DNA of 61,461 nucleotides from Candidatus Methylomirabilales bacterium (GTDB lineage Bacteria > Methylomirabilota > Methylomirabilia > Methylomirabilales > CSP1-5). Each line of letters starts with the position of its first letter. Position 1 is the stretch's first letter. The stretch covers positions 1-61,461 of the forward strand of contig JBHIAH010000009.1 in assembly GCA_046758505.1 (NCBI GenBank), in the 5' to 3' direction. Shown here piece after piece: positions 39,001-45,000 of this stretch. Made by a program: the position numbers.

Positions 39001-42000
39001 AGCGGGGAGAGCAGGTGATCGAAGGCTCTGCCCTGGTCGTCGCGCCGACAGGGGACCACGGCAGACGAGACTGACCCGTGCGCCCTGCCCAACTCAGCCG
39101 CCTCGGGAGCGCTGCGGTGATCCTCAGGACACATCTTCCCGGGCGGGAATTCGCGTCAACATCGATGTCCTCGATGATCCGGGGCGCCACCCTCACGAGC
39201 GGCGGGCCTGGGTGCTCGTGGTGCGATGGGTGTGCCTGCGATCTGGTGGGGACGGCCGTCGCCGGGCTGCGGTCTTCTTCGCGGGGGCGGCCGGTGACGG
39301 TTGGGCCCCGGCCAAGGCCTGGAGCAGATCGCTGGTGGTAATGATCCCGACCAGGGTGGACCCTCGGACGAGACTGGCAGGGAGCCGATGCGATGATCGA
39401 CCATGAGTCGTGCTGCCCTGTCGGTTCCGGCTTCCGGGGTCACGGTCACGACCTTTCGGGTCATGACGTCGCCGACCTGTGCCTGACCTCCCCAGTCTCG
39501 GAATCGCTCCTGCTCCTCGGGGAGGGCGAGGGACGACGGGGCCACCAGACGGAGATCTCGATCGGTGAACATCCCGACAAGCTGCTTCCCTTGGATGACC
39601 GGGAGGTGGCGGACCCTATGTCTCCGGATGATCTTCAGGGCGTCCCAAATGCTGTCGCTGGACTGGATGGTGATGGGATTCACCGTCATGTACCGTTCGA
39701 CCGCCATCGTCTCCTCCTTCTGCGGTGTCGGATCTATCGTTCCTCCGGGAGTCGCCGGTGACGACGGCAACCTGCCCTGTAGGTCCCTTTCCCTTCCTCT
39801 GAATGGCTGGGTTCGACTCGCCATCGAGGCCGCATCACGTCTGTGCCTCTCGTGTCAGGCAGTACCACGCCTCGGTGACCAAATCATGGCCTAAAGGACG
39901 GTGCGCGACGGCTCCTGCGAAGGTGACTGTGATGTCCCTAGCTCCATTGAGAGCGGCGCGCCAGGACGTTCTCCCACGTGAGAAGGGGGGCATTCCGAGG
40001 ATCGGGGCGACCATTTGCCCTGGGACATGGCTTTCATTGACAGGGCGGCGGAAGTCCCCTAGAATAAAAGCGTTAACTATACCGTGCTTCTGGCATAAGG
40101 GAAACCATGGGTATGAGAGCGATCCCACTCTGGATGCAAGACCTCAATGAGCGGATCGAGGCAGAGACCTCAAGCCTCTTCATCCTGCACCACAATATCG
40201 CCGATTACTTTCCTCTCGGTCAGGCCTTTCTCGCCTTCCCCGCCTTTCTCGCCGACTGGCTGAGGGAGACGAGTCCCGTCATTTTCTACAATCGGTCCAC
40301 GGGCCTGCGCTTTCCCGATGAGGAGACCCAGCGCCGATTTCAGGAGGCGGCGGGTCTCGTGGTTCGTCGCGATCAGCGAGATGTGTCCTTGGAAGAGCAG
40401 CGAAGGCGGGCCTTGGTGGCATTGGGTGAGGCGACAAGTGCTGAGCCGCCCCCCCTCCCCACGCATCCCACCAAGGTTATCCCGCTCGTGGGGCAGGCCC
40501 TCCGGTCGGGGCGTCTCCGGAATGGGCGGCGGCGCGCGGTCGCTGTCCTGGAGTACGCGGAGAGTATCGCCCCGGCTGCCGATTTTTCCTGTATGAATGA
40601 GGATGATCGTACCAACCTGGTCGCCCTCCTCAGCCTCGCGACCGATCCGACGGTCCACGAGCAAGGGGGGGTGGTCCTGCTCACGGTGAGCAATCTGGCC
40701 GATCTGCACCCGGCCCTCCGGCAGCCGGGCGGTCGGGTCGAGGTGATCGAGGTCCCCCTTCCCGATGAGGCGGAGCGGCTCCAGTATATCGCGCACCTGC
40801 TGGATCAGGAGGGGGTGCGGATCGGCATGAGCGCGGAGGAGTTCGCGCGAGCGACCGCAGGACTGACCCGGCTCCATCTCGAACAGCTCTGTCGCCAGGC
40901 CAAGGCCAAGGGCGTTCCCCTGACGTTTGAAGAGATCAAGCGGCGCAAGCGGGAGATCCTGCGCCACGAGTTGTACGGGATGGTCGAGCTGGTTGAGCCG
41001 GGCTTCGCATTAGAGAGCATCGGTGGGCTCGCCGCGGTCAAACAGTTCTTCCGGGAGGTGGTCCAGGCCATTCGGGATGGGGACCTCAAGATGGTCCCCC
41101 GCGGCATTACGCTGGTGGGTCCTCCTGGGGTGGGAAAGACGGCGGTGGCCGAGGCCTTGGCAAAGGAGTGCGGCTTCAGCTTCGTCAAGATCACCAACCC
41201 CCGGGAGAAGTGGGTGGGCGCCTCGGAGCGAAACTTCTGGAAGATTCTACAGGCCCTTCGGTCGTTGACCCCGCTGGTGGTGCTGGAGGACGAGGCAGAC
41301 CAGAGCGAGCAGTCCCGGGATGAGATGAGTGGCGACTCTGGCGTGACCAACCGGCTTCGTCAGATGCGCTTTGAATTCACGGGCGACCCCACCATCCAGG
41401 GGAAGGTCCTGTGGATCCGGATCACGAACCGTCCGGACAGGCTGGATCCGGCCGAACGCCGCTCGGGCCGGTTTAGCGAGCGGATTCCTCTGCTGATGCC
41501 GGATGCGGATGAGCGGGTCGCCATCTTCACGGTCATGCCGAAGCGGTACGGCTTTGCCACCACGGCGGTCGATTTTCGGGCGATGGTGGACCTCTGCGCA
41601 CAGCGGTTCCCCGGACAGATCACGGGCGCCGACATCGAGGAGATTTCTCTCAGGGCGTACCGCCATGCCAGGGTTCGCGGGGCGACGGCAGTGGCGGAGG
41701 ACGACTACGGCTGGGCGATTGAGGATTTCATTCCCTCCCAGTCGGCGGAGTTGATCCGTCAGCAAGAGCTCATGGCAGTCGTCCACTGTTCCTCTCGTCG
41801 CTTCTTGCCCGAGCGGTACCGGGACATCGGGGTGGGGGAGATCCGGTCCCTCGGATAGGGCGTGGAGCAGGCATCGATGGGGGAGTATATCCAGATCGAG
41901 GGAGACGTGGTTCGGCTCCTCCGGCACGGGGGCCGGGCGGGGGCGGTTGTTGACCGGGAGGTATCGCTCCGGACATTTCTTCAGGCCCTCCTCCGCGCCG

Positions 42001-45000
42001 CAGACGGGTCCCGCCGCCTCCCCCTTCTTCCCGTTGGGACGCGCTTCATCCTGGGCCGGGAGCCGGATCTCTTGATCGCGGTGGAGCAGCCCCCCCAGGT
42101 CCGTCACGTCACCTGGCGGCCGGGCGGGGCGCCGGGAGCGGCCCGGGATTATCCCTTGGCCTTTCCCTATATCCTCTACCTGGTGCTCTTCCACCAGGGA
42201 GCCTTCGAGGAGATGCGCATCTATTACCGCCCCGCCCCTCTCACCGCGGACAGCGATCCCCTCTACCTGTCGAACCTGTGGAATGTGTCCTCGACGGAGA
42301 CCCCCATGGCGAAGTGTCGTGCCTGTCTGCAGGGTCGGCCCCCCTTCGACGAGCTGACCCTGGCCGCCCAGGTGCGGGGCGTCATCGAGTTCTTCTGGGG
42401 GACCGGCTTCAATCGGGCGATCGACGAGAGTTGCTTCCTGCGGGCCGCAAAGCGGGATAGCCGGATTGCCACCCTGGAGGCGTGGGAGCGGGCGAGTCGG
42501 TGCGACCCCCTCTTTCCCCTCGACGTGGATTGGGAGCCGGTGGGGAAGGGTCTCAAGGAGACGGCGGAGGAGCTCATGGCCTGGCGGGGGAAACCGGCTG
42601 CGATCGAGGATGCGGCGGATCTGGCCGACCTGATCTATCGGGTTATGGAGGGGTAAGGGGTGTTCCCGATCTATGTGAAGGAGGCGGGATTCCGCGAGCC
42701 TGAGGAGCCGATCTACTATCTGGTGAGCCGCAGTGGGCTCTTCCAGGTCAAGCGGACCCCGGTTTTTTGCTCCACGATTCGAGTTCCGGGGCTCCTGTGG
42801 CTCGAGGAAGAGGTAGAAGGGGTGGAGTTCCTGCTTCCGGTCATCCCGGCGAAAATCCTGGGGGAAAGCATGGCCTTCTTCCGCGAGGTCTTTCGCAAGT
42901 ACCGCGCCGAGGCTGCCGTCCTCCTCTATCGCAGGGAGGCGGCGGGGGAGTACGAAATTCGCATTCCCCCCCAGCAGGTGGCGGGAGGTCATTGCCGGTA
43001 TGAGGTCGGTCCCAATCCCCCCGGCTGTCTCCGGGTGGGGACCATGCACAGCCACGGGGCAGCCGAAGCCTTTCATTCGGAACTCGATGATGTCGACGAG
43101 CAGTACGATGACGGGCTCCATGTGACCATCGGGTCTATCCACGCCAAACCCACCGTCTCCTGTTCCCTCGTCGTGGACGGCCGGCGCTTCGACCTCCGGC
43201 CCGAGGCGGTGCTCGAGGTGATGCCCTGGCAGCTGGAACCGACGATCCGGCTCGAGGATTCGGAACGGGTGACCGCCGAGCCGCCGCCCGGGGATTCGGA
43301 TCCGAGCGGCCGGCCCTCCGCCATCTAACCAAGCAGTCGGCAGTCAGCAATCAGCTATCCGCACTCAGATGCTGAAAAAGCTGACCGCTGACGGCTGGGA
43401 GCTGACAGCTATGCGTGAAATCAAGGTGATTGGCATTGGCGGGATTGGCTGTGCCCTGCTCCCGTTCCTGGCCCGGTATCTGAATTATCGGGGGGAGCGG
43501 GCCCGCGTCACCCTCATTGACGGGGATGAGTTCGAGCGGGCCAATGCGGACCGGCAGGCCTTTGGGACGCTGGGGAATAAGGCGAAGGTCACGGCTGCCG
43601 AAATGGCCAGACAGTTTCAGCGCCTCTCCTTCCGGGCCATCCCCGAATATATCACCGAGGCGAACATTGGCCAGTTCATCCAGGGGGGGGACATGATTTT
43701 TCTGGCGGTGGATAATCACAAGACGCGGAAGCTGGTGAGTGATTACTGCGAAAAACTGGCAACGGTGACGTTGATTTCCGGGGGGAATGATTTCACCGAC
43801 GGAAATGTTCAGGTCCATATTCGAGAGGGAGGTAAGGACCGGACCGCGCCGATCACGCAGTTTCATCCCGAGATCCGGAACCCCCGCGATCGCTCGCCTG
43901 CGGAGATGTCGTGTGAGGAGCTGATGGAGCGCGGAGCGCCCCAGCTCTTGTTTACGAATCTCGCTGTTGCGTCCGCCATGCTCAATGCCTTCTATGGCGT
44001 CCGCGAAGGGAAGCTGCGGTACGGCGAGGTCTACCTCGATATTGTCGAGGGCAAGAGTAACCCAGTCAAGCGCCAGGGAGAGGGAACGCAATGACCGAAC
44101 CACTCAAGCAGGCGACGCGGGTTCGTGCGGGGTCCCCCACGCAGGCGCAGGAGCCGGTGCGGGTCATCTATGGGGTCCACTCGCTCGAGGTGAACATCGC
44201 GGGGCGAAGCGTGGGAGACGTCCGTGCCGCGTTGCGGCAGGCTTTGAACATCGGCCCCCAGGCGGTCGCGGTGGTCGGGGGCCGGGAGGTCGTGGAGAGC
44301 TACCTCCTGCAGGCCGGTGAGGTTTTGGAGTTTGTCCGACTGGCTGGCGAGAAGGGCGTGGGAGATCTGTGGCCGGGCCCTGGCGGTTCTGGCCGGGCCC
44401 GGTAGGCGAGCCGTCCCTCGGCGCCGGACTGGGGGTGGGTTCCTGGAGCGGTCGCTCCTGATGACGGCGGAGGCGGATGGGTGAGGAAAGAGGGAGACGA
44501 TCGGCGGAAGTTGCCCCGATTCCGGATTATCAGCGTCGGGGGCTCCATCACAACACCGGTAGAGGCGGACGTCCTGAACCTGAGCATGGGTGGGGCACTG
44601 GTCGAGCACCAGGGTACGTTGCGTGTCGGATCCGAGTGTACCCTGAACGTTCCCCTGGCTGGCGCCCCGGTGAATATCAGGTGCCACGTGGCCCACAGTA
44701 CCGTCGACCACCGGGCGACCGGACCTGCGGGGGAGGGTCTGCTTTTTTACCGCACGGGCCTGGAGTTTCTCGAGCTTTCTCGAGAGGCCAAGGAAATCCT
44801 GGCGACGCTGATCCGCTCTTACGGCGAGGGGGGAGAGGGGGGATAACCTCAGAGAGCGAGGGGGCGCAAGAGCGTGAAGCAGATCCCGACCGACAGGGGA
44901 ACGGTGATGTTGTCATCCAGTGGCAGGGGGAGGCATTCGGTGACCGCACCGATCACGGCCCCTCCCAGGGCCACGGCGGGGTGGAAGAAGGGGAGCGTCA

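Follow-up and report, generated by a model that had tools for sequence, protein, structure and literature searches.

A probable bacterial ubiquitin-like conjugation operon linked to a Cdc48/VAT-like AAA+ ATPase in Methylomirabilales

The window analysed here, 61,461 nucleotides of a Candidatus Methylomirabilales contig (JBHIAH010000009.1), carries five tightly packed genes on its forward strand. These encode an AAA+ ATPase (40107–41858; 583 amino acids (aa)), an E2-like protein (41877–42656 from an ATG; 259 aa), a JAMM/MPN+ metallopeptidase (42660–43328; 222 aa), a ThiF-type E1 (43369–44094; 241 aa) and a ubiquitin-like protein (Ubl) precursor (44091–44405; 104 aa). A GTG start at 41862 is possible for the E2-like gene (264 aa); the ATG yields the 259-aa form common to all homologues. 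Successive genes are separated by 3 nt (18 nt to the ATG), 3 nt and 40 nt and then share a 4-nt ATGA overlap, so the exact reading frames bear out the survey's finding of a compact, co-oriented cassette (gaps of −4 to 40 nt). A strong promoter-like site, sigma-70-like by consensus match only, lies on the same strand 42 nt 5′ of the ATPase start codon (TTGACA-17-TAGAAT, 40037–40065; 11 of 12 hexamer positions); it is the best of six sites in 39000–45800, where shuffles expect 0.8. Because the same gene order recurs at 17 other loci, the arrangement is not due to chance. The promoter-like site and the short gaps speak for a single operon, probably one for bacterial ubiquitin-like conjugation. 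The operon is surrounded by ordinary metabolic genes, and its two flanking proteins have a CBS domain and a PilZ domain. The PilZ gene (44481–44846, forward strand; 121 aa; PF07238, 6.1e-9), directly 3′ of the Ubl gene, is one of 13 PilZ-model matches in the genome (E ≤ 1e-3) and follows the Ubl gene at only 3 of 17 same-type loci (L003, L005 and L007); it is a possible accessory outside the core.

The 259-aa protein had been put forward as the E2 of a new, Methylomirabilales-specific family. It again lacked a Pfam or PADLOC family, with no match to any Pfam, NCBIfam or PADLOC model, and a word-indexed search again returned 81 homologues, the named ones from NC10/Methylomirabilales and one Chloroflexota bin; the paralogue was placed at C31:25366–26154 (46% identity). 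The apparent narrow range arose because that search was word-indexed. A profile search with the family retrieved 1,880 representative clusters, and at least five phyla have loci of it: besides NC10, these are Thermodesulfobacteriota, Verrucomicrobiota, Planctomycetota and Acidobacteriota. Given this spread and the tie to Prok-E2_D/PRTRC_B described here, the claim of a specific, new family is not supported. Profile–profile comparison (hhalign) with a canonical Prok-E2_D protein, which scores 37.3 bits on PF14460 and also matches PRTRC_B, gave 96% (E 4.4e-9, 149 columns) and placed C150 on the conserved cysteine. Among the relatives, no Pfam family other than Prok-E2_D recurs (7 of 10 long and 5 of 87 short ones), and 26 of the 30 nearest ESM-Atlas clusters carry it as well. 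Judged by these profile comparisons and Pfam matches, the E2-like protein is a diverged branch of Prok-E2_D/PRTRC protein B.

An AlphaFold2 model from a deeper alignment (pLDDT 91.1) reproduced the earlier hint of an E2 fold: E2/UEV entries make up no fewer than 27 of the top 30 VIA-align rows (Z 5.2–3.9), E2 enzymes as a whole span Z 5.2–3.5, and Foldseek returned no match at E ≤ 0.001. On its own, a Z near 5 is weak structural evidence. Three cysteines, C147, C150 and C186, had been singled out as conserved, and each is at least 90% conserved in an alignment of 21 sequences; in the wider family this holds for C150 (at least 90% in 87 sequences, invariant in 45) but not for C147 or C186. Cys150 (42324–42326, forward strand), preceded by P-N-L-x-N136 with a conserved N136, is the candidate catalytic residue. 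Together, hhalign, VIA-align and C150 conservation uphold the identification of an E2 fold with a conserved cysteine. Moreover, 23 of 148 relatives are natural Ubl–E2 fusions (L074 is one such locus), with K-G at the junction in 23 of 23 and G-x-K-G in 21.

The 104-aa protein likewise has no Pfam or PADLOC family, and its 59 homologues in the word-indexed search, the named ones NC10/Methylomirabilales, were recovered again. It comprises a disordered N-terminal stretch of 18–20 residues, a beta-grasp core (residues 23–82) and a conserved end, A85-G-E-K-G89; within the previously reported motif L-E-F-V-x-x-A-G-E-K-G, L79, E80, F81, V82, A85, G86, E87, K88 and G89 are invariant in 24 sequences. 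Foldseek rows for its model (pLDDT 73.1, core above 80) are ubiquitin, NEDD8, TtuB/ThiS, MoaD and SAMP (best E 1.6e-3, probability 1.00); Pfam beta-grasp matches of the homologues are weak (among 24, one to ThiS at 0.0068 and one to ThiS-like at 0.017). G89 (44355–44357, forward strand) is followed by a non-conserved 15-residue tail (44358–44402). GEKG is kept in 57 of 59 homologues, of which 14 stop exactly there and 43 continue for 1–73 residues. The beta-grasp model and the variable tail past the conserved glycine show a beta-grasp Ubl made as a precursor; the survey had taken the protein for a Ubl from its size, place and C-terminal pattern. At four NC10 loci (L015, L016, L019 and L071) the Ubl model found no match, and at the first three the roughly 1.5 kb that follow the E1 gene contain no reading frame with GEKG.

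Both remaining enzymes of the tagging kit kept their assignments and scores. The JAB protein matches Prok-JAB at 5.2e-6 (26.8 bits, cut-off 25) and PRTRC_A at 4.6e-8, under that model's cut-off. Its E84, H130-S-H132, S140 and D143 make up E...HxH-x7-S-xx-D; across 28 orthologues every one of these residues is conserved to at least 95%, which indicates a complete, intact JAMM site. The E1, a single adenylation domain, matches ThiF at 9.4e-19 (PF00899, 67.9 bits, cut-off 28.1), BilD at 9.6e-4 and PRTRC_ThiF at 1.2e-14, the last under the model's cut-off; MoeB (1jw9, 3.5e-6), TcdA and Uba4 are its closest solved relatives. Conservation across 27 orthologues is at least 95% for G22-x-G-G-x-G27, D51/D53, R62, D115 and Cys182, the last being the candidate catalytic residue. 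The family match and the conserved cysteine support a ThiF-type adenylating E1.

The ATPase match to PF00004 was reproduced (3.3e-26); the TIGR01243 CDC48 model aligns at 2e-38, but its 132 bits fall short of the cut-off of 803. Its best solved relative is VAT (5vc7; 3.9e-53 over residues 295–556), and residues 144–283 align to D1 and D2 of VAT alike (2.9e-10). The first ring is degenerate, with no Walker A and LEYAES where Walker B is expected. The second has Walker A (G338–T345), Walker B (D395–E396), a pore loop (K368-W-V-G371) and an SRH (N441–R455), and C561-S-S-R-R-F-x-P is conserved at the C-terminus; these motifs are invariant in 45 orthologues. On these motifs, the protein is a Cdc48/VAT-like type II AAA+ ATPase with a dead first and a live second ring, carrying the threading motifs of classical unfoldases. 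Alignment to VAT revealed no recognisable substrate- or Ubl-binding N-domain. No protease partner is encoded among the operon's genes, and the genome's single Proteasome-family match is a 192-aa ORF of HslV size. The ATPase C-terminus lacks an aromatic penultimate residue and is therefore not an HbYX motif.

Comparative genomics places the AAA+ gene within the system, although the earlier account had allowed that it might be unrelated. The order AAA–E2–JAB–E1(–Ubl) occurs at 17 of 17 NC10-type loci whose DNA reaches upstream. Among 151 sampled genomes of the phylum, which are related and so not independent, 26 have the ATPase orthologue, and the 25 with a member of the E2 family all belong to those 26 (both, 25; ATPase only, 1; E2 only, 0; neither, 125). 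In Desulfobaccales the ATPase adjoins E2 at 34 of 39 loci, with peroxiredoxin–AAA–E2 synteny at 31 and JAB–E1 elsewhere on the chromosome in 5 of 5 genomes checked; adjacency of the ATPase is conserved at 51 loci in two phyla. In Verrucomicrobiota/Planctomycetota a different, Mpa-like AAA+ (TIGR03689 about 1e-28, under the model's cut-off) lies directly 5′ of Ubl–E2–JAB–E1 at 8 of the 8 loci whose DNA extends that way, and once, at L075, in frame with the Ubl. Two congeners (G043 and G020) have AAA–JAB–E1–Ubl operons with no E2 gene, so an E2 in cis is dispensable there. The system is present in 24 of 42 other genomes of the order and was not found in several that are 99–100% complete; it is therefore accessory, as a conflict system would be too. 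Taken together, gene order, co-occurrence and adjacency argue strongly for a link between the AAA+ and the E2 family, and the five parts are inherited together.

We favour, with a probability of about 0.6, a Prok-E2_D/PRTRC/'type 6d' conjugation operon that has acquired a dedicated Cdc48/VAT-like unfoldase and works as a tag-and-unfold path. Against this reading weigh the missing model match and low structural Z of the E2-like protein, its missing histidine (see below), the congeners with no E2 gene, the NC10 loci with no Ubl match, the lack of a protease partner in the operon and the patchy presence in the order. Each biochemical step, the order of events and the substrates are given here as we infer them. 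The JAMM peptidase would cleave behind Gly89 of the Ubl precursor and, at a later stage, take the tag off targets. The E1 would adenylate Gly89 and load the tag on Cys182, from which it would pass to Cys150 of the E2-like protein and on to target lysines, with no recognisable E3. With its live D2 ring and the KWVG pore loops, the hexameric ATPase would then engage tagged proteins and unfold or extract them, whether or not unfolding ends in degradation. Mpa engages Pup, and the ATPase may similarly find its site of engagement in the N-terminus of the Ubl, which is conserved and disordered.

A reading in which the AAA+ gene has nothing to do with its neighbours and merely shares their promoter region would agree with the 11 paralogous NC10 loci, which have no such ATPase; the co-occurrence counts, read with the genomes' relatedness in mind, the adjacency at 51 loci and the different AAA+ of the third group make this very improbable. 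The ATPase might instead act on the conjugation machinery: much as TRIP13 works on HORMA proteins in CBASS, it could remodel or recycle assemblies of E2, E1 or Ubl, or it could itself be the main tagging target. ATPase–E2 is the most persistent pair, kept in Desulfobaccales while the rest lies elsewhere, and the single AAA–Ubl ORF and the missing N-domain point the same way. Yet the congeners retain AAA–JAB–E1–Ubl with no E2 gene, and its pore-loop and SRH motifs are of the kind that enzymes threading their substrates have. Cdc48-like and Mpa-like unfoldases, whose architectures are unrelated, occupy the same place, so generic unfolding fits better than specific enzyme remodelling, and we regard action on the machinery as quite unlikely.

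A sulfur-carrier or cofactor pathway of the ThiS/MoaD–ThiF/MoeB type, with no protein conjugation, would suit the minimal ThiF/MoeB-like E1, its solved relatives and the two ThiS-type Ubl matches. It is highly improbable given an E2 fold with a conserved cysteine, a JAMM peptidase, precursor tails and Ubl–E2 fusions, all hallmarks of conjugation; the Ubl ends in K-G, not G-G, and the Pfam matches of the five operon proteins and the CBS-domain and PilZ proteins include no sulfurtransferase, rhodanese or cofactor-synthesis family. The same chemistry as in the tag-and-unfold reading could also serve immunity rather than housekeeping proteostasis: the operon would then guard against phages or plasmids in the manner of BilABCD, with the Ubl put on invader proteins and the ATPase sensing, regulating or finishing off the tagged parts of the invader. 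Besides the gene set shared with Bil and the patchy distribution, Uroviricota are abundant among the nearest Atlas clusters of the E2-like protein, E1 relatives (27–35% identity) occur in nine phage records, a JAB–ThiF pair is present in the single record checked (Bacillus phage vB_BceM_WH1, 230 kb), the ATPase weakly matches IetA in PADLOC (2.2e-14), and at L047 an R-M-like gene is inserted between ATPase and E2. Against this, PADLOC identified no system protein beyond weak E1 and ATPase matches, tblastn and a pattern scan found no relatives of the E2 in phage collections, and the surrounding genes are metabolic. The Desulfobaccales parts, spread over the chromosome with conserved synteny, look like a vertically inherited cellular system, and an immune role seems unlikely.

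Several bacterial phyla share the pairing of a conjugation kit with an unfoldase, and this points to a putative bacterial 'tag and unfold' pathway. The gene set of Bil (Ubl, E2, JAB and E1) is the same as here, and loci of the Verrucomicrobiota type have it in the same order. Prok-E2_D/PRTRC_B is the E2 of operon type 6d of Iyer et al. (2006), who describe a conserved histidine after the cysteine of type 6d E2s; the present family lacks such a histidine. The survey had presented the coupling of a Ubl cascade to an AAA+ protein as new: the AAA+ does belong to the system, but the coupling has some precedent in print, since Kaur et al. (2020) describe bacterial Ubl cascades with AAA+ ATPases, namely the FtsH/MoxR 'ternary systems' and a Ubl-plus-Pup pairing.

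The five genes of the operon lie on the forward strand at 40107–44405: an AAA+ ATPase gene of 583 codons that starts at 40107, an E2-like gene (264 codons, or 259 if started at the ATG at 41877), a JAB gene (222 codons), an E1 gene (241 codons) and a Ubl gene of 104 codons that ends at 44405. Gaps of 3, 3 and 40 nt separate the first four genes, and the E1 and Ubl genes overlap through an ATGA. The top-scoring promoter-like site within 39000–45800, TTGACA-17-TAGAAT, matches at 11 of 12 positions and is placed 42 nt 5′ of the ATPase gene; further 5′, a gene for a CBS-domain protein occupies the opposite strand. 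Directly 3′ of the Ubl gene is a PilZ gene (44481–44846), an arrangement found only in the window and the three closest loci, and a terminator-like hairpin (44720–44751) falls inside it. The database figures given for the operon in the survey's finding were reproduced. Our analysis shows that the conserved five-part system is real and that its tagging kit has diverged from other members of a class already predicted in 2006. Its coupling to dedicated unfoldases, the function of which we infer throughout, is the interesting part.

The 259-aa E2-like protein had been taken to found a new E2 family specific to Methylomirabilales, and a word-indexed search returned 81 relatives, almost all from NC10. 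An HMM of 21 sequences run against 1.84 billion representatives found 1,880 at E ≤ 0.001 (1,117 of them at 1e-10 or better and 191 at 1e-30 or better); with this breadth, and with a kinship to Prok-E2_D uncovered by profile comparison, the claim of a lineage-specific family falls. The protein is a diverged E2 of the Prok-E2_D type. By itself it matches no Pfam family at E ≤ 10 and no NCBIfam family at E ≤ 1, and it stays below the cut-offs of Prok-E2_D (PF14460) and PRTRC_B (TIGR03737). Prok-E2_D was matched by 7 of 29 relatives scanned, in the profile-matching region and all from a group of ten proteins about 700 aa long; two of the 29 passed the PF14460 cut-off of 25, with 32.7 and 27.3 bits. 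It was also matched by 5 of 87 aligned short forms (best E 1.3e-4), the sole family with more than one member match. A further link is to L081, a canonical member of Prok-E2_D encoded by a genome of the window's order, which scores 37.3 bits on PF14460, also matches PRTRC_B and is adjoined by a PRTRC_A-like JAB. The 87-sequence profile aligns with it over 149 columns (probability 96%, E 4.4e-9), sets the candidate catalytic C150 on its Cys and shares the motifs E-x-P-P-Q-x-R, P-N-x-x-x...C and F-W-x-x-x-F-N. By profile comparison, the two therefore have a homologous E2 core that includes the conserved Cys. In the ESM Atlas, Prok-E2_D is found in 26 of the 30 nearest clusters, on 11–30% of their members and with scores up to 0.97. 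When PF14460 was run against 151 genomes of the phylum, it matched one unrelated canonical locus (in genome G123) and not the window's E2 family.

Structure prediction points the same way. A model of the E2-like protein from a deeper alignment reached a pLDDT of 91.1 and a pTM of 0.78, and of the first 30 rows of VIA-align against 48,161 chains, at least 27 are E2 or UEV entries. The top row has Z 5.2 and an rmsd of 4.5 Å over 123 aligned residues, and entries containing bacterial CdnG-E2, Cap2 and BubB follow at Z 3.6–3.4. A Z of about 5 is weak alone and is consistent with an E2 once joined to the profile evidence. When Foldseek compared the model with the PDB, no row reached E ≤ 0.001 and E2 enzymes figured only among the weaker ones (UbcH7, for instance, at E 0.086), and the 87-row profile had no match at E ≤ 10 among the sequences of solved structures. 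Three cysteines had been described as conserved; C150 stays at 90% or above in the wide 87-sequence alignment, and the other two do not. N136, 14 residues N-terminal to C150, is also conserved in at least 90% of that alignment, and C150 is invariant in 45 E2 sequences that accompany a Cdc48-like ATPase. The model fold together with the conservation of N136 and C150 thus gives the E2/UBC hallmarks of an α/β core and a Cys preceded by Asn. According to Table 1 (row 6d) of Iyer, Burroughs & Aravind (2006), a His on the C-terminal side of the Cys is absolutely conserved in type 6d E2s. The window's family differs from them in lacking it: no His is among the invariant or ≥90% columns of the 87-sequence alignment, and the sequence at the Cys reads C150-L-Q-G-R-P in the window versus I-C-W-G-H in canonical L081.

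Fusions join the E2 domain to the putative tag. Ubl–E2 fusion proteins account for 23 of the best 148 representatives, with G-x-K-G at the junction in 21 of the 23 (GEKG in 16) and A-K-G and V-K-G in the remaining two; in a Limisphaerales genome, for example, a 422-codon ORF (L074:5512–6780) joins a Ubl ending in RRAGEKG directly to the E2 domain. Other architectures occur as well. Relatives P0151, P0159, P0161, P0175 and 11 more, of about 335–358 aa, have a non-Ubl N-terminal extension of about 70–80 residues, which is Cys-rich in 12 of the 15 and in which V-G-x-K-V and W-x-x-x-W patterns recur. In ten proteins of 684–789 aa, the E2 domain is central and is preceded by about 340–430 uncharacterised residues. 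As for phages, tblastn with the E2 found nothing at 1e-3 in 50,697 phage records, and a pattern scan of IMG/VR with the E2 alignment gave 53 pattern matches, none of them confirmed. The ESM Atlas clusters nearest to the E2 are rich in Uroviricota, and distant E1 relatives occur in 9 phage records; the one examined, a 230-kb Bacillus phage, has a distant JAB–ThiF pair.

The JAB and E1 proteins pass the Pfam cut-offs of known families. In the JAB protein, E84, H130-x-H132, S140 and D143 are each at least 95% conserved among 28 orthologues, reproducing the JAMM/MPN+ zinc-site pattern E ... H-x-H-x7-S-x2-D, and Prok-JAB is matched at 26.8 bits against a cut-off of 25; comparison of its sequence with solved structures gave chance-level rows only. 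The E1 scores 67.9 bits on PF00899 (cut-off 28.1), and 27 orthologues conserve G22–G27, D51, D53, R62, D115 and C182, so that the G-x-G-x-x-G, Arg finger, Mg-binding Asp and Cys of ThiF/MoeB/E1 enzymes are all present. From its position, C182 would be the catalytic Cys. The top NCBIfam matches of the two proteins are PRTRC_A for the JAB (32.8 bits versus a cut-off of 101.8) and PRTRC_ThiF for the E1 (54.2 bits versus 144.75).

The reading of the 104-aa protein as a Ubl precursor is upheld by a β-grasp model, an invariant GEKG end and variable tails. Among 24 aligned homologues, L79, E80, F81, V82, A85, G86, E87, K88 and G89 are invariant, and GEKG is present in 57 of 59 homologues, 14 of which stop exactly at its Gly and 43 of which have tails of 1–73 residues. 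The AlphaFold2 model has a pLDDT of 73.1, with a core above 80 and residues 1–18 and 91–99 below 50; L5 is conserved in at least 90% of the 24 homologues, and the first residues of this N-terminal segment are partly conserved. The predicted order β-β-α-β-β is that of a β-grasp fold, and Foldseek matched the model to ubiquitin, NEDD8, TtuB/ThiS, MoaD, SAMP and similar proteins, every row with probability 1.00, a best E of 1.6e-3, slightly above the tool's 0.001 line, and TM by target of 0.57–0.70. In Pfam no family was above its cut-off, and the weak matches of the 24 homologues are to β-grasp families (TGS in 3, CIDE-N in 2, ThiS in 1 and ThiS-like in 1). The protein thus combines the two features of a β-grasp modifier, the fold and a C-terminal Gly that is exposed or can be exposed. 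In one type D locus (see below), a single 696-codon ORF (L075:3860–5950) carries an Mpa-like ATPase in frame with a Ubl (end ...VRQAGEKGKPCR); this could be a genuine joining of AAA and Ubl or the loss of a stop codon in a single metagenome-assembled genome.

The closest solved relatives of the operon's ATPase are archaeal VAT (3.9e-53) and p97, matched through residues 295–556. The N-terminal half of the protein is a degenerate AAA module, of which residues 144–283 align to both VAT rings (2.9e-10); this D1 has no Walker A, and its Walker B position reads LEYAES. In D2, GPPGVGKT, D395-E396, K-W-V-G371 and N441-R-P-D...R452-S-G-R455 are invariant in 45 orthologues, as is a C-terminal C-S-S-R-R-F-x-P motif. 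At the sequence level, the Walker A and B motifs, pore loop and SRH with Arg fingers of a classical-clade AAA+ unfoldase are therefore present. The protein scores 132 bits on TIGR01243 (Cdc48/p97/VAT) against a cut-off of 802.65, which leaves it outside that family, and sequence comparison detected no N-domain. Judged from its sequence, it probably works like the Cdc48 family without being a member of it. Prediction of a complex between the ATPase (45-row alignment) and the E2 scored 0.00 in two runs without controls and speaks neither for nor against binding.

A pattern scan with one genome per species yielded 78 loci of the E2 family, which were mapped with envelope-trimmed HMMs and a GC3-guided gene list; the list omits the window's own Ubl and PilZ genes. 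The loci fall into four types. Type A, that of the window, reads AAA-E2-JAB-E1 and comprises 17 NC10 loci plus one that is cut, with the ATPase in 17/17. The Ubl gene is next in 11, a match to the Ubl model is absent in four (L015, L016, L019 and L071), and the other loci are cut by contig ends; in L015, L016 and L019, the roughly 1.5 kb 3′ of E1 also lacks a GEKG frame. One type A locus (L017), with an NC10-like E2 copy of 49% identity, was binned as Sulfotelmatobacter. Another NC10-like copy (L021, 44% identity) sits on a 1,856-nt contig binned as Nitrososphaera; for these copies in acidobacterial and archaeal bins, mis-binning seems a better account than transfer.

Type B is a paralogue cluster of 11 NC10 loci and a copy on contig C31 of the window's genome, with genes for an unknown protein, a weak JAB, an α/β-hydrolase and an E2. 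In five loci a second Ubl, ending in QAGEKG, and a second E2 paralogue come next, with no E1 nearby, and in one locus (L020) MoxR-type AAA and vWA genes stand between the two. The C31 cluster (C31:22474–26553, or 2475–6554 of the extracted locus L087; relatives L020–L030) encodes a 379-aa unknown protein, a JAB-like protein (Prok-JAB 0.0068), an α/β-hydrolase and an E2 paralogue of 46% identity, followed 3′ by a 125-aa ORF of no family and, 265 nt further, by the contig end. The 379-aa protein had been called a coiled-coil E2; hhalign reveals no kinship with the window's E2 family (probability 0.9%), and the protein has no Pfam family.

Type C, peroxiredoxin-AAA-E2, comprises 39 loci from Desulfobaccales and relatives. 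The ATPase gene occurs in 34 of the 39 and the peroxiredoxin gene in 31; of the five loci without the ATPase, three are truncated at contig ends. In all five genomes checked, an orthologue of the JAB (44–47% identity) is encoded elsewhere in the genome, adjoined by an E1 in four, and in 8 loci the Ubl gene lies about 5 kb off on the opposite strand. The peroxiredoxin (AhpC/TSA) genes, found across L031–L069 (for example, L053:3245–3787), lie 4–297 nt 5′ of the ATPase gene on the same strand, an adjacency that may reflect a link to redox stress or merely inherited synteny. Where the system is split in this way, the Ubl gene of L053 (1051–1701, reverse strand) and of 12 other Desulfobaccales-type loci is adjoined by the gene of a conserved protein of about 216–270 aa that has no Pfam family and matches none of the E1, E2, JAB and Ubl models. 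In L047, an insertion (4270–5757) that encodes a 495-aa fusion of an N6/N4 DNA methylase and an Mrr-like endonuclease domain separates the ATPase gene from that of the E2.

Type D (10 loci from Verrucomicrobiota, Pirellulales, Acidobacteriota and others) reads Ubl-E2-JAB-E1 in 9; in the tenth, L070, the Ubl gene is last and the contig begins too close to show the 5′ DNA. In 8/8 loci whose upstream DNA is available, the gene immediately 5′ encodes a different AAA+ protein, and a ninth locus has a fragment of this gene. This ATPase is Mpa/ARC-like, matching TIGR03689 at about 1e-28 over nearly its full length and below the cut-off, with weak proteasomal OB-domain matches in 2 of 3 scanned. In a FastTree tree of 82 E2 sequences, rooted on a single long Prok-E2_D branch, NC10 types A and B group together and types C and D fall outside, a topology compatible with either one or two recruitments of the Cdc48-like ATPase.

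The survey's finding had counted the AAA+ gene as part of the system, and this is supported by its presence in every type A locus and in all E2-bearing genomes sampled from the phylum. Among 151 genomes, the E2 family occurs in 25 and an ATPase orthologue (E ≤ 1e-100) in 26, with all 25 within the 26 and the unpublished G046 counted in both tallies; as the sampled genomes are related and not independent, these counts describe linkage and carry no statistics. Every positive genome belongs to the window's order (24 of 42 genomes, leaving aside the window's own, versus 0 of 108 elsewhere). Several genomes of that order that are 99–100% complete yielded no member of the E2 family, which makes the system accessory. 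Two congeners of the window's genome, L089 (G043:C10:36500–44500) and L090 (G020:C95:1–4424), have AAA-JAB-E1-Ubl with no E2 gene and an ATPase–JAB gap of only about 60–100 nt. The two type B E2 paralogues of G043 lie on a different contig; in G020, which is 93% complete, no E2 was found.

We propose that the JAB would trim the tail of the Ubl precursor, that the E1 would adenylate G89 and then form a thioester, and that the E2 would receive the tag from E1 and pass it on, no E3 having been seen. We propose this chemistry because of established knowledge of E1, E2 and JAMM enzymes and of the solved Bil and Bub cascades. The ATPase would act directly on tagged proteins. We favour this reading because two unrelated unfoldase designs hold the same operon position and because the Ubl has a disordered, partly conserved N-terminal segment, which could enter the ATPase pore. 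No gene for a protease partner lies near the operon, and the genome's single Proteasome-family match has the size of HslV. We put at roughly two in five the probability that this is a chromosomal bacterial 'ubiquitin–Cdc48' pathway, in which a folded β-grasp tag with a disordered N-terminal handle, conjugated by a minimal E1/E2 set with no E3, is read directly by a dedicated, adaptor-less unfoldase; of the two unfoldase designs, Cdc48-like and Mpa-like, different phyla would have joined one or the other to the same kit.

To our knowledge, no covalent tag outside Pup marks bacterial proteins for unfolding, and the bacterial β-grasp conjugation systems that we know to have been studied (CBASS Cap2, Bil and Bub) are read as immune and have no unfoldase. 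If the proposed pathway exists, tag-dependent unfolding based on the β-grasp fold would be a bacterial invention that parallels or predates the eukaryotic and archaeal link between ubiquitin and Cdc48 or the proteasome. The compact five-gene set is conserved in at least five phyla, with two interchangeable unfoldase types and with Ubl–E2 and possibly AAA–Ubl fusions, and it offers a testable model for how ubiquitin-type tagging could gain ATP-driven unfolding. The parts are small, their mutable catalytic residues are clear, and reconstitution in E. coli or in vitro is feasible.

PRTRC cassettes have the gene order B-A-ThiF, the same as the operon's E2-JAB-E1. They represent type 6d, with PRTRC_B as Prok-E2_D (PF14460), PRTRC_A as the JAB and PRTRC ThiF, and the operon shares all four kinds of enzyme and tag with them, in the same E2-JAB-E1 order. 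Operons of Ubl, JAB, E1 and E2 were predicted as type 6d by Iyer, Burroughs & Aravind (2006). Unlike in PRTRC, the operon's JAB and E1 score below the curated PRTRC cut-offs and its E2 has no match; among the proteins scanned, six of them with the PRTRC models, we found no ParB-related protein and no match to PRTRC_B, C, D, E or F, which places the operon outside the PRTRC systems. It is also chromosomal and partly dispersed, whereas PRTRC is carried by a plasmid or ICE. Unlike type 6d, it adds an AAA+ unfoldase gene. The word 'ATPase' occurs three times in Iyer et al. (2006), once at least for an FtsK-like ATPase of the YukD/ESAT-6 clusters, which are not these operons.

Like BilABCD, the operon combines a Ubl, an E2, a JAB/JAMM deubiquitinase and an E1, and type D loci share the A-B-C-D order; the operon's E1 is a weak BilD match (9.6e-4). 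PADLOC at E ≤ 1 gave no BilA, BilB or BilC match for the operon's Ubl, E2 and JAB, so the operon does not qualify as BilABCD. Its E1 consists of one adenylation domain of 241 aa, in contrast to BilD with its inactive and active domains, and the CEHH motif of BilB was not seen in its E2. Type I Bub has BubAB (Ubl–E2) and BubCD (JAB–E1) fusions, resembling the Ubl–E2 fusions in the operon's wider E2 family (23/148) and the JAB and E1 that stay paired where the system splits. The BubB-containing entry in the E2 fold list (9eav, Z 3.4) is a resemblance at the level of fold alone. Unlike in Type I Bub, the window's genes are separate and there is no DUF6527 protease. In the available parts of the Bil and Bub preprints, 'ATPase' and 'AAA' occur 0 times and no ATPase is mentioned.

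The bacterial link between a Ubl set and an AAA+ ATPase has a brief precedent in print, which tempers the novelty of the coupling. Kaur, Burroughs, Iyer & Aravind (2020, eLife; PMC7159879) describe Ubl tri-ligase sets within FtsH/MoxR 'ternary' conflict systems, the pairing in Thermofonsia and Planctomycetes of a Ubl set with one for Pup, and bacterial JAB, E1 and Ubl–E2-fusion sets encoded with AAA+ ATPases, which may send targets to degradation. One NC10 paralogue cluster (L020) resembles these in its MoxR and vWA genes. Unlike those systems, the operon has no vWA–MoxR, FtsH, RING-type E3, effector-associated domains or caspase-like effectors. A search of the full-text literature, its scope excluding most subscription journals, returned no Cdc48-like or Mpa-like ATPase encoded with a Ubl cassette of the Prok-E2_D type.

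Two known tag-and-unfold pathways provide further parallels. Like ubiquitin with Cdc48/p97/VAT, the operon would combine a β-grasp tag and an E1/E2 pair with a two-ring classical AAA+ protein nearest to VAT and p97; unlike those unfoldases, its ATPase has no double-psi-barrel N-domain and a D1 predicted to be catalytically dead, and we saw no genes for a Ufd1/Npl4-like adaptor, an E3 or a 20S proteasome. Like Pup with Mpa/ARC in Actinobacteria and Nitrospirota, it has a small tag with a disordered end and a dedicated AAA+ unfoldase encoded alongside, and its type D relatives have an Mpa-like ATPase. Unlike Pup, a disordered peptide ligated by PafA/Dop, the operon's tag is predicted to be a folded β-grasp domain attached by E1/E2 chemistry.
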